From Escherichia coli (GTDB lineage: Bacteria > Pseudomonadota > Gammaproteobacteria > Enterobacterales > Enterobacteriaceae): a DNA stretch of 1,333 nucleotides. Under the pieces are notes generated by a model that was given only the letters and a program-made list of their open reading frames with translations, was not told the origin of the DNA and made no database searches. The number at the start of each line of letters is the position of its first letter. Within the stretch, counting starts at the first letter, position 1. The translations under genes and the position numbers were made by a program. Of this stretch, positions 1 to 1,333 are shown piece after piece. The stretch lies in NCBI RefSeq assembly GCF_003334785.1, contig NZ_QOWV01000062.1; one strand, given 5' to 3'.

Positions 1-138
1 AGGTGTTTGCTGTTGTTCAATGTATTGGCGGATGACGGATATTGGCGCACCTCCGCAGCTACTGGCAAAATAGCCAGGACTCCACAAAACGCCTTTGTAG
101 TAATACCTGACTGCAATATCTGGTCGATCTCGTCGCAG
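1..138 (-). pseudogene. tnpA: C-terminal remainder of tnpA, in the same frame directly downstream of the TGA at 139-141; open to the window edge
   Basis: Minus-strand codons immediately after the TGA, in the same frame, read LRRDRPDIAVRYYYKGVLWSPGYFASSCGGAPISVIRQYIEQQQTP. This resembles the conserved TnpA C-terminus (LWS.SYF...GG...RQYIEQQ), including the helix carrying the catalytic tyrosine (Tyr codon at 22-24, minus strand). There is no stop before position 1. Confidence 0.75.
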
Positions 139-426
139 TCACCTACCCGATACGCCTTTGAGGCTGTTTACCAGACTGGATATCGCCAGTTTGGGAGGAT
201 AGTTAATTAACAAATGGACGTGATCTGGTTCGCCATCCATTTCAACCAGTTCAGCTTCAAAATAAGCACATACATTTGAAAAGTAAGTGCGTAGTTTTTC
301 TGTCGCGTCATGGTCAAAAATCTGACGTCGGTATCTGGTGACAAAGACCAGGTGAACATGCATCAGGAAAACACAATGCCTTCCACGCCGGATATCGGTT
401 TCTTTTTTCACAGACCAAAGTATCAT
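139..426 (-). CDS. tnpA: IS200/IS605-family Y1 (HuH) transposase TnpA, 95-aa N-terminal segment ending at a premature in-frame TGA (139-141)
   Basis: ATG is the reverse complement of 424-426. The translation MILWSVKKETDIRRGRHCVFLMHVHLVFVTRYRRQIFDHD...PDHVHLLINYPPKLAISSLVNSLKGVSGR contains the His-hydrophobic-His motif (H-V-H, minus-strand codons at 214-222) and an upstream HVHLVFVTRYRR strand, both typical of IS200-type TnpA. At 95 aa the ORF is too short for an intact TnpA (about 130-155 aa). Confidence 0.85.
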   Translation of the reverse strand: MILWSVKKETDIRRGRHCVFLMHVHLVFVTRYRRQIFDHDATEKLRTYFSNVCAYFEAELVEMDGEPDHVHLLINYPPKLAISSLVNSLKGVSGR

Positions 427-433
427 TTGGCCT

Positions 434-1189
434 GTGAAACGACTACAAGCATTTAAATTCCAGTTAAGACCCGGTGGTCAACAGGAGCGTGAAATGAGGC
501 GCTTCGCAGGCGCATGTCGTTTCGTTTTCAATCGTGCTCTGGCACGTCAGAATGAGAATCATGAGGTCGGTAATAAATACATCCCTTACGGGAAAATGGC
601 TTCCTGGCTGGTTGAGTGGAAAAATGCCACTGAAACGCAATGGCTTAAAGATGCCCCGTCACAGCCATTGCAACAGTCACTGAAAGACCTTGAGCGGGCT
701 TACAAAAACTTCTTCCGGAAGCGGGCTGCTTTTCCCCGATTCAAAAAGCGGGGACAGAATGATGTATTCCGCTACCCGCAGGGCGTTAAGCTCGATCAGG
801 AAAACAGCCGTATTTTTCTGCCGAAACTGGGCTGGATGCGCTACCGGAACAGCCCTCAGGTCACGGGTGTTGTGAAAAATGTCACTGTCAGCCAGTCCTG
901 CGGTAAGTGGTACATCAGTATTCAGACAGAAAGTGAAGTATCAACTCCGGTTCACCCTTCAGCATCAATGGTCGGGCTGGATGCTGGCGTGGCTAAACTC
1001 GCCACGCTGTCAGATGGCACAGTCTTTGAGCCTGTAAACAGTTTTCAGAAAAACCAGAAGAAGCTGGCGAGACTTCAGCGACAGTTAAGCCGCAAGGTCA
1101 AATTCAGCGACTGCATTCCTGTATCGCAAATATCCGCAGGGACTACCTTCACAAAGTCACAACGACCGTCAGCAAAAACCACGCAATGA
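434..1189 (+). CDS. tnpB: TnpB (IS605 OrfB-type RNA-guided RuvC-like nuclease), N-terminal 251-aa segment in frame 2; the last ~25 residues are out-of-frame read-through ending at TGA 1187-1189
   Basis: GTG start at 434-436 with no ATG or other start upstream in frame. The N-terminus MKRLQAFKFQLRPGGQQEREMRRFAGACRFVFNRALA matches the conserved TnpB N-terminal pattern. Further conserved blocks follow: WLKDAPSQPLQQSLKDLERAYKNFF, FPRFKKRG, FRYPQG, VTVSQSCGKWYISI, the RuvC-I block VGLDAGVAKLATLSDG (Asp codon 980-982) and KLARLQRQLSRKVK. After about codon 1106-1108 the frame-2 translation (DCIPVSQISAGTTFTKSQRPSAKTTQ) loses all resemblance to TnpB. Confidence 0.88.
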   Translation: MKRLQAFKFQLRPGGQQEREMRRFAGACRFVFNRALARQNENHEVGNKYIPYGKMASWLVEWKNATETQWLKDAPSQPLQQSLKDLERAYKNFFRKRAAFPRFKKRGQNDVFRYPQGVKLDQENSRIFLPKLGWMRYRNSPQVTGVVKNVTVSQSCGKWYISIQTESEVSTPVHPSASMVGLDAGVAKLATLSDGTVFEPVNSFQKNQKKLARLQRQLSRKVKFSDCIPVSQISAGTTFTKSQRPSAKTTQ

Positions 1190-1333
1190 TAGTCATTGAG
1201 GATTTGAAGGTCAGCAACATGTCAAAGTCAGCAGCGGGTACGGTCAGCCAGCCGGGGCGCAATGTCCGGGCAAAATCAGGTTTAAACCGTTCGATACTGG
1301 ATCAGGGCTGGTATGAAATGCGCCGCCAGCTTG
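1102..1333 (+). pseudogene. tnpB: TnpB C-terminal continuation in frame 1, carrying the RuvC-II motif; runs off the window end
   Basis: Frame 1 is open from 1030 to the window end. From about 1102 it reads IQRLHSCIANIRRDYLHKVTTTVSKNHAMIVIEDLKVSNMSKSAAGTVSQPGRNVRAKSGLNRSILDQGWYEMRRQL. This matches the conserved TnpB segment (ARLH..IAN.R.DFLHK......N..IVIEDLNV.GM...........GW.EF.RQL as I recall it from ISDra2-type TnpB), with the RuvC-II Glu codon at 1198-1200. The start coordinate is approximate because the frame junction cannot be placed to the base. Confidence 0.78.

Follow-up and report, generated by a model that had tools for sequence, protein, structure and literature searches.

The window, a stretch of 1,333 bp that is 100% identical to E. 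coli chromosomes, is very probably the inner part of a 1714-bp copy of the insertion sequence IS609 that sits at the yedK stop codon as a vertically inherited, decaying relic. Both genes of this copy are truly broken, tnpA by a nonsense codon and tnpB by a frameshift, and the stretch is thus an unremarkable decaying copy of a mobile element that has been annotated before. The two lesions differ greatly in age, the tnpA nonsense codon being widespread and the tnpB deletion confined to 29 genomes.

Results

A copy of IS609 at the yedK stop codon

The original prediction described an IS200/IS605 copy that is non-autonomous and decaying, and this description was borne out: the copy is IS609, its boundaries coinciding with the IS609 mobile_element feature annotated in K-12 (NC_000913.3). 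Neither end of the element lies inside the window, the element spanning positions -62 to 1651 in window coordinates. Its insertion site is exactly the yedK stop codon of the E. coli chromosome, and this insertion is carried by about 1102 genomes.

Placement in the IS200/IS605 family is agreed upon by NCBIfam, Pfam and PDB homology. The element encodes a Y1 HUH TnpA, interrupted by a TGA, and a TnpB (OrfB) RNA-guided nuclease recognized by NCBIfam, Pfam and PDB matches, and it has no terminal inverted repeats. Insertion occurred 3' of a tetranucleotide, without target duplication and with precise empty sites. At each of four loci, and on one plasmid as well, the LE is preceded by TTAT or TTAC, and the exact empty site, TTAT joined to CAAACAGG, was found in many genomes; the reconstructed empty site aligned with real genomes over all 120 nt as one block without gaps (99.2% identity). 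A promoter and terminator scan of the element gave matches no more frequent than in shuffled sequences. To the left of the element, an unannotated gap (L001 3042-3937) holds three ORFs of at least 50 aa, the longest of 79 aa. The features of the window are collected in Table 1.

Table 1. Parts of the IS609 copy within the window, ordered by position
Feature	Positions	Strand	Basis or remark
tnpA 3' remnant past the nonsense codon, codons 97-142	1..138	-	translation; transpos_IS200 profile positions 89-126 of 126
tnpA nonsense codon TGA (plus strand: TCA)	139..141	-	codon comparison with intact copies
tnpA 5' ORF, 95 codons; HUH motif HVHLL at 208-222	142..426	-	ORF list and NCBIfam
Spacer separating the start codons of the divergent genes tnpA and tnpB	427..433	.	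7 bp
tnpB native frame, codons 1-225, GTG start at 434; HTH/WED/REC region and RuvC-I Asp183 (980-982)	434..1108	+	
34-bp deletion junction, one CAGC microhomology copy retained	1105..1108	+	alignments
Downstream tnpB remnant, frame 1, reference residues 236-311	1105..1333	+	guided_TnpB profile positions 260-326
Out-of-frame tnpB tail, 26 codons, then premature TGA at 1187-1189	1109..1189	+	

A nonsense codon divides tnpA

The N-terminal part of tnpA matches the NCBIfam model transpos_IS200 at 100.4 bits (cut-off 55; profile positions 2-84 of 126). Codon 96 is TTA (Leu96) in the intact copies L011, L012 and L003 and TGA in the window, and the change leaves the HUH motif on one side of the stop and the catalytic Tyr119, at 70-72 inside the 3' remnant, on the other. 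Beyond the TGA the frame stays open as far as the window reaches on the left, just short of the final codon and the natural stop. Selenocysteine insertion or any other programmed recoding at the TGA was rejected, because a search of both strands with Rfam (E ≤ 1) returned no SECIS-like or other recoding RNA there.

Alleles of codon 96 were counted with 41-mers centred on the SNP, seeding on exact matches only; these replaced an 80-nt plasmid-type probe for intact tnpA, with which an E-value cut-off did not separate the allele classes. Among 5426 complete genomes, 2727 carry the TGA allele, at 3371 places in total; K-12 MG1655 is one of these genomes, and the allele is shared with IS609 copies at another locus, making two loci in all. 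The number of TTA alleles is not a count of intact tnpA genes, since the yeaQ relic and many ydcO alleles pair TTA with other stops. Further lesions have built up in many tnpA alleles, from frameshifts and additional stop codons to loss of the codon-144 stop. The segregating sites of the gene comprise 13 nonsynonymous and 4 synonymous changes, set against a neutral ratio of 3.37. Across E. coli, tnpA is evolving neutrally and has been inactivated in several different ways.

A 34-bp deletion truncates tnpB

When the window was aligned with an allele of the yedK locus whose tnpB is intact (402 aa), the frameshift proved to be a 34-bp deletion between CAGC direct repeats. The remaining N-terminal fragment matches NCBIfam guided_TnpB at 186.9 bits (cut-off 100; profile positions 1-249 of 389), as against 387 bits for the intact allele, in which Pfam recognizes HTH_OrfB_IS605, OrfB_IS605 and the TNB domain. 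The protein is homologous to ISDra2 TnpB of known structure (8bf8 and 8h1j, E about 1e-54). A functional nuclease would have the RuvC D-E-D triad and the zinc-finger/TNB part in one ORF; the translated product here contains only Asp183 and lacks RuvC-II, RuvC-III and the zinc-finger/TNB part. RuvC-II Glu267 lies at 1198-1200 in frame 1, which is not the frame of the truncated TnpB. The translation of the downstream remnant is 100% identical to the intact allele, and the gene runs on past the window. A frame-1 ATG just upstream of RuvC-II had been pointed out earlier as showing no sign of use; at 1186-1188 it is the native Met263, four codons upstream of Glu267, and a direct reading of the sequence 5' of it found nothing resembling a Shine-Dalgarno sequence.

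The deletion junction, searched as a 60-mer, is present in 29 of 5426 genomes, UMNK88 among them, at one place in each, and thus marks 29 of the roughly 1102 carriers of the yedK insertion. The only private coding change of this allele is nonsynonymous (R141P). In sister alleles the segregating nonsynonymous and synonymous changes of tnpB stand at about 1:1 as opposed to a neutral 3.5:1, and partial purifying selection on the gene persists there. The region of a putative ωRNA, comprising the 3' end of tnpB and the RE, lies outside the window and is untouched by the deletion. Rfam matches on the L001 plus strand at 5481-5664 were all below threshold (RAGATH-18 at 28 bits with a threshold of 44.9, HgcC at 21.9 with 50, and sot0042 at 14.4 with 88).

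Both lesions are real, independent and of different age

RefSeq annotation treats both genes as pseudogenes and flags the lesions as "internal stop" and "frameshifted"; together with the population counts, this confirms the tnpA nonsense codon and the tnpB frameshift as real. The claim that the two lesions are independent was supported as well. They are not of similar age: the TGA allele is widespread, and the 34-bp deletion is found only in its 29 genomes. The further claim, of an insertion no longer under selection, needs correcting for tnpB, whose partial constraint in sister alleles implies that the element was not fully unselected before the deletion; tnpA is neutral.

The comparison drew on about 20 sampled alleles out of thousands. 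Other, independent lesions have accumulated at the yedK locus: 434 of the 1102 genomes with the insertion have lost the RE hairpin to a 100-bp deletion (alleles L006-L009), L007 carries the tnpB nonsense mutation Q208*, and L012 has a 390-bp tnpB deletion. IS609 haplotypes are mosaic across loci, a pattern suggesting gene conversion between copies at different sites. Transposition of a dead copy was considered as the source of the shared TGA and judged less likely than gene conversion, the haplotype blocks being mosaic between loci.

The ends are present with weakened hairpins

Once the window was extended to both ends of the element, as originally proposed, the subterminal hairpins were found (L001, outside the window): an LE hairpin of the form CCCCGTCC-TTCA-GGGCxGGG and an RE hairpin of the form CCxCGTCC-TTCA-GGGCGTGG. 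Both occur in all sampled copies except four yedK alleles without the RE hairpin. The TTAT and TCAA cleavage contexts are likewise both present in L001. In the window copy, stem pairs are disrupted by G33A and C47T in the LE hairpin and by A1721T in the RE hairpin; predicted stability falls from -14.6 to -8.5 kcal/mol for the LE and from -10.7 to -7.5 kcal/mol for the RE, and the LE now has a minimum-energy fold other than its canonical hairpin. The proposed count of paralogous copies was made in one carrier, WY517-2, which has three IS609 copies on its chromosome, all with a broken tnpA; the inventory covered the chromosome, and within it no intact IS609 tnpA was found.

Discussion

The order of events begins with tnpA, in which the change of Leu96 from TTA to TGA cut off the catalytic tyrosine. 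Later, within a single small lineage, tnpB lost 34 bp between CAGC repeats, probably by replication slippage or microhomology-mediated deletion, and its frame shifted after codon 225. Judged from its sequence, the window copy is probably inactive, with no working transposase or RNA-guided nuclease made from it. It is likely to be effectively immobile and to go on eroding, as in sister alleles that already have RE or tnpB deletions or a premature stop in tnpB. Ectopic gene conversion between IS609 copies, rather than transposition of the dead copy, would account for the presence of one tnpA stop at two loci.

Other accounts of the lesions fare less well. That one or both are sequencing or assembly artefacts is so improbable as to be negligible: we found nothing in its favour, and it is refuted by a deletion junction that is identical in 29 complete assemblies of diverse laboratory and host origin, and by a TGA 41-mer in 2727 genomes, including that of K-12 MG1655. 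It is also possible to regard the tnpA TGA as a leaky stop, at which low-level readthrough would yield an attenuated but functional transposase, leaving the copy defective in tnpB only. In E. coli a stop codon UGA tends to be leaky when the next base is C, a C does directly follow this TGA, and through such readthrough trace amounts of full-length TnpA (L96W) may be made; the allele is moreover common, at two loci, and its frame past the TGA is still open. Against this stand the fully neutral polymorphism of tnpA, the extra lesions accumulated in many alleles and the failure of Rfam to find a recoding RNA, while gene conversion accounts for the sharing of the TGA between loci. We therefore consider a leaky, functional tnpA very unlikely and retain the view that the gene is dead.

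A dead tnpA need not by itself immobilize the element, and the original prediction allowed for mobilization in trans. If an intact IS609 elsewhere on the chromosome, or one on a plasmid, supplied TnpA, the enzyme might act on the ends of this copy, which would then be non-autonomous yet mobile. The trans-mobilization of IS605 elements lacking tnpA is well established (Meers et al., 10.1101/2023.03.14.532601). TTAT 5' of the LE, the TCAA terminus at the RE and both hairpins are in place; intact IS609 exists in E. coli at the O157:H7 ytfB locus and on IncI2 plasmids, and at the yedK locus itself one allele has its tnpA intact. However, G33A, C47T and A1721T all break stem pairs, the WY517-2 chromosome has no intact tnpA, the deletion allele is single in 29 of 29 carriers with no second copy, and mosaic gene conversion better explains the lesions common to several loci. 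Movement in trans, although possible in principle, has left no trace, given the weakened hairpins, the lack of an intact tnpA on one carrier chromosome and the single copy per genome, and we regard mobility of this copy as unlikely. Less probable by far is the suggestion of co-option, in which the truncated TnpB (residues 1-225 and the 26-residue tail) would bind DNA under RNA guidance in the manner of the TldRs, which are natural, nuclease-dead and C-terminally truncated TnpB relatives acting as RNA-guided repressors (PMC10705468). The existence of such proteins, and a putative ωRNA-encoding 3' region and RE unaffected by the deletion, speak for it. Yet TldRs are described as preserving the overall fold and the RNA-binding interface (PMC10705468), whereas here the protein is cut within the RuvC fold, past Asp183 and short of Glu267, in an allele limited to 29 near-identical copies that remains within an insertion sequence with both ends. 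The sole private coding change is the nonsynonymous R141P, the fragment shows no sign of selection, and the unrelated disruptive lesions of sister alleles form a pattern of decay, not domestication. It is equally improbable that the 251-residue product, or a putative ωRNA from downstream loaded on the intact InsQ paralogue of the same genome, keeps RNA-guided binding to the yedK 3' end or the empty site as an early, TldR-like domestication. The decaying relic remains the reading we favour.

The kind of element and its pseudogene state are already known, IS609 relics with a dead tnpA being annotated in K-12 and in thousands of genomes. The window copy is one more allele of a known relic and of little importance in itself. 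A modest wider interest lies in the finding that E. coli IS609 tnpA is repeatedly inactivated and neutral, with the longer tnpB open at ydcO and partly constrained, a pattern that fits the published view of TnpB outliving its transposase. The lineage with the 34-bp deletion offers a natural knockout of tnpB at a single locus, of use for testing whether relic nucleases have any effect. In the literature library searched, IS609 and InsQ function appear only in genome-survey mentions, and we found no functional or biochemical study of them.

Comparison with known elements

The nearest described relative is IS609 of K-12 MG1655 (NC_000913.3 1503161-1504908, 1748 bp), in which tnpA is the pseudogene yncK (b4578) and tnpB is insQ/ydcM (b1432). 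It and the window copy have identical boundaries, TTAT followed by CCGGTGCGCC ... GGATGTCAA, the same divergent tnpA/tnpB layout and the same TGA at tnpA codon 96, and they differ by 27 substitutions over the aligned length. The K-12 element lies at the ydcO stop codon rather than that of yedK, and its insQ is intact (402 aa), whereas the window tnpB has the 34-bp frameshifting deletion; the window copy also has extra stem mismatches in its end hairpins. Intact IS609 is known from the yjfZ-ytfB locus of E. coli O157:H7 (TnpA WP_000604943.1) and from the IncI2 mcr plasmid pEC1266-mcr. These copies share the organization and end sequences of the window copy, the chromosomal ones being roughly 2% different and the plasmid copy 93.5% identical, but both of their ORFs are open, with TTA at codon 96 and without the 34-bp deletion, and their LE hairpins are stronger (-14.2 to -18.5 kcal/mol).

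Like the window fragment, TldRs are derived from TnpB and have lost the nuclease along with RuvC and zinc-finger parts. They belong to conserved families that keep their fold, have guide RNAs dedicated to them and lie beside genes unrelated to transposons; the window fragment, in contrast, is a recent frameshift product in a recognizable insertion sequence and bears no conservation signal. IS608 of H. pylori and ISDra2 of D. radiodurans are the models for peel-and-paste transposition and TnpB/ωRNA homing in the IS200/IS605 family. In common with IS609, they have a Y1 HUH TnpA, imperfect subterminal hairpins and an RE ending in TCAA. Insertion is 3' of the tetranucleotide TTAC for IS608 and of TTAT or TTAC for IS609, and the genes of IS609 are divergent, in the IS605/IS609 layout, rather than in tandem.

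Results

By comparison with the K-12 reference, the element of the window is IS609: the K-12 feature (NC_000913.3 1503161-1504908, 1748 bp) and the window copy have identical boundaries, TTAT followed by CCGGTGCGCC ... GGATGTCAA, and on the K-12 numbering (element 1-1748) window 1-1333 corresponds to element positions 63-1429, with both element ends, the final 318 bp and the entire guide RNA (ωRNA)/right-end (RE) region lying outside. A sequence 100% identical to the window is present on the chromosome of at least 24 complete E. coli genomes (e.g. UMNK88, KSC64 and WY517-2), and 4860 of 5426 complete genomes match over at least 80% of it. 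In UMNK88 the window occupies positions 4001-5333 of the extracted locus (L001), between a ybcM/ybcL/emrE island adjoining fliE and yedK, and RefSeq already annotates both genes there as pseudogenes, tnpA with an 'internal stop' and the InsQ/TnpB family gene as 'frameshifted'. The stretch from fliE to the IS609 copy (L001 1182-3041) contains emrE, ybcL and ybcM, DLP12 prophage genes that have another position on the K-12 map; a gap of ~900 bp (L001 3042-3937) holds no annotated gene and only three ORFs of at least 50 aa (50-79 aa).

Both tnpA fragments match NCBIfam transpos_IS200 (N-terminal part, 100.4 bits; cut-off 55) and both tnpB fragments match guided_TnpB (N-terminal part, 186.9 bits; cut-off 100), and Pfam recognizes HTH_OrfB_IS605, OrfB_IS605 and a Cas12f1-like TNB domain in the intact tnpB allele, which also aligns with the ISDra2 TnpB structures 8bf8 and 8h1j (E ~1e-54). 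The two start codons are divergent and 7 bp apart (window 424-436), so each promoter must sit within the other gene. The tnpB start is GTG in chromosomal IS609 copies and ATG in a plasmid copy, whose tnpA is without the first ATG and begins five codons further on.

Coordinates of IS609 features and of the three chromosomal IS609 copies of strain WY517-2
Feature	Position	Strand	Remark
IS609 element, window copy	L001 3938-5651 = window -62 to 1651		1714 bp = 1748 minus 34
tnpA start codon	window 424-426	minus
tnpA HUH motif	window 208-222	minus	residues 69-73
tnpA codon 96 (L96*)	window 139-141	minus	TGA (plus-strand TCA)
tnpA catalytic Tyr119	window 70-72	minus
tnpB start codon	window 434	plus	GTG
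RuvC-I Asp183	window 980-982	plus	within truncated product
RuvC-II Glu267	window 1198-1200	plus	in other frame
Insertion point in yedK stop	L001 5648-5656 = window ~1648-1656		just right of window
Insertion point in ydcO stop	L004 6906-6909
WY517-2 copy 1	yedK		window copy
WY517-2 copy 2	ydcO locus		tnpA frameshifted + E62*; insQ intact, 402 codons
WY517-2 copy 3	yeaR-yeaQ		tnpA E62*; tnpB Q5*

The original prediction held that tnpA is broken by a nonsense codon and tnpB by a frameshift, and its description of the lesions is right in every detail that can be checked. Codon 96 of tnpA is TTA (Leu) in three copies with an open tnpA, namely the O157:H7 copy at the yjfZ-ytfB locus (L011), the yedK-locus allele of strain L3Cip3 (L012) and an IncI2 plasmid copy (L003). 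The stop falls between the HUH motif and the catalytic tyrosine; by the established mechanism of Y1 enzymes, the 95-residue product cannot function as a transposase. The SNP was counted with a pair of 41-nt probes, centred on it and seeding solely on an exact match: TGA occurs at 3371 places in 2727 of the 5426 complete genomes, TTA at 4481 places in 2532. Because of this distribution, and because TGA is also present in the K-12 copy at ydcL-ydcO, where tnpA is the pseudogene yncK, the nonsense lesion is old, widespread and no artefact.

A comparison allele from the yedK locus of CFSAN061772 (L002) has an intact 402-codon tnpB, from which the window copy differs by four substitutions and the absence of a 34-bp segment. 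CAGC stands on both sides of this segment in L002 and is kept once in the window (1105-1108), which would be the signature of a microhomology or slippage deletion. The resulting reading frame has 225 native and then 26 foreign residues before a TGA at 1187-1189. The ATG at 1186, predicted to lie just before RuvC-II, is indeed native Met263, and reading of the sequence before it revealed no recognizable ribosome-binding site. A 60-nt probe for the deletion junction, used with an E-value limit that excludes half-matches, found it in 29 of the 5426 genomes, at one place each and always chromosomal. As 1102 genomes contain the RE-yedK junction, the deletion marks ~3% of carriers of the yedK insertion, and on this account the frameshift is recent, and likewise no artefact.

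Eleven alleles of the yedK locus were sampled, of which three have an intact tnpB and one is the window allele. Four others (L006-L009) share a 100-bp deletion between GTGGAG(G/A)GATG repeats (element ~1642-1741) that lies beyond the window and removes the 3' end of tnpB as well as the RE hairpin, so that the tnpB frame runs into yedK; one of the four additionally bears Q208*. By junction counts and coverage, this class comprises 434 of the 1102 genomes with the insertion. The L3Cip3 allele has lost 390 bp of tnpB in frame between GTCAGCCAG repeats (element 950-1339); with its tnpA intact, it decays in the opposite pattern to most alleles. Together these states form the pattern that would be expected of a relic eroding independently across lineages.

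Some lesions are common to several loci, L96* to yedK and ydcO and E62* to ydcO and yeaQ. When 19 chromosomal copies, drawn from yedK, ydcO, yeaQ and ytfB, were aligned, the haplotypes proved to be mosaics of blocks: one ydcO-locus copy (L017) carries a yedK-type haplotype at element positions 716-1721, and two yedK-locus copies (L007, L008) carry a K-12-type block at 493-721. Ectopic gene conversion between paralogous copies would explain the common lesions. Neither transposition of dead copies nor a functional leaky stop is needed to account for the common TGA, since mosaic haplotypes and gene conversion explain its sharing.

In all eight sampled ydcO-locus alleles (L004, L014-L019 and L021) tnpA is broken, by at least four different lesions (L96*, Y76*, E62*, a 5-bp deletion and a 1-bp deletion), and tnpB (insQ), 2.8-fold longer, is open over 402 codons. 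Segregating nonsynonymous and synonymous sites, small counts from non-random samples in which recombination between copies blurs 'within-locus' polymorphism, stand at 13:4 in tnpA (neutral, 3.37:1) and at 18:18 (ydcO) and 22:20 (yedK) in tnpB (neutral, 3.48:1; one-sided binomial p ~2.5e-4 each), the ydcO ratio being ~1/3 of neutral. Comparing tnpB of chromosomal copies from different loci in pairs gives dN/dS of ~0.2-0.3. As judged from these values, tnpA is unconstrained and tnpB partly constrained. The four coding differences between the window and its closest relative with intact tnpB are all nonsynonymous (tnpA D55Y; tnpB Q95R, N96K and R141P), which would fit relaxation in the window lineage, four being too few for a test.

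Read in L001, beyond the window, the window copy still has its two cleavage contexts and its two subterminal hairpins, and the stems of both hairpins carry substitutions. The left-end (LE) hairpin folds at -14.6 kcal/mol in the consensus of other copies and at -18.5 in the intact O157 copy; G33A and C47T bring the window copy to -8.5 kcal/mol, where the minimum-energy fold is a different one from the canonical hairpin. At the RE, the fold goes from -10.7 to -7.5 kcal/mol with A1721T. The ends are therefore present but, by these predicted folds, probably weakened. Three sub-threshold Rfam hits, RAGATH-18, HgcC and sot0042, pile up at L001 5481-5664 on the plus strand (tnpB 3' end and RE). HgcC and sot0042 are tied to IS605-type elements. 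Guide RNAs derived from RAGATH-18 are reported to pair with IS607 TnpBs (PMC11061315). The hits are consistent with a putative ωRNA scaffold that no dedicated Rfam model covers.

The reconstructed empty yedK site (left flank to TTAT, then CAAACAGG...) gave a single ungapped match to real genomes across its full 120 nt at 99.2% identity; since K-12-like and O157:H7 genomes match across this junction, the site is polymorphic, being occupied in ~20% of genomes. Between the L3Cip3 allele and the others at the yedK locus there are 28-35 substitutions (~2%), and the adjoining 700 bp of yedK diverge to a comparable extent, which would fit long residence and vertical descent. At both fixed loci IS609 lies exactly in the stop codon of a convergent host gene. 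The empty yedK end, ...CCT GTT TG/A TAA (QPV*; slash, insertion point), becomes ...QPVC*, with a TGA stop derived from TCA of the RE terminus, and in ydcO the native TA/A becomes TAT TGA, adding one Tyr. On the opposite strand the target TTAT reads ATAA and includes a stop codon, a circumstance that may favour gene ends among surviving insertions.

Discussion

The prediction of a decaying, non-autonomous IS copy is borne out: both lesions are real, the tnpA stop recurring in 2727 genomes and the tnpB junction in 29; sister alleles are eroding; and in WY517-2, whose genome contains the window sequence unchanged, none of the three chromosomal IS609 copies has an intact tnpA. No trace of movement of the window copy was found. 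Of the two lesions ascribed to an old insertion, that in tnpA is old and that in tnpB young. The claim that the element is no longer under selection for mobility stands for tnpA and needs refining for tnpB, which has been partly constrained. The element and its pseudogene state were already known and annotated, so this copy is of little interest in itself.

It had also been speculated that the truncated TnpB was co-opted as an RNA-guided DNA binder. The idea is not unreasonable in kind, since TldRs, nuclease-dead and C-terminally truncated relatives of TnpB, are RNA-guided repressors (PMC10705468), but the break here comes well before RuvC-II, inside the RuvC fold, only 29 near-identical copies have the allele, and sister alleles bear unrelated disruptive lesions, all of which make co-option extremely improbable. 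Erosion of a relic is the reading that we retain.

The ydcO pattern suggests that the transposase is selected against, that the nuclease is favoured, or both. An unconstrained tnpA beside a partly constrained tnpB agrees with the report that most tnpB genes have no tnpA close by and that elements of the autonomous kind seem to degrade readily (10.1101/2023.03.14.532601).
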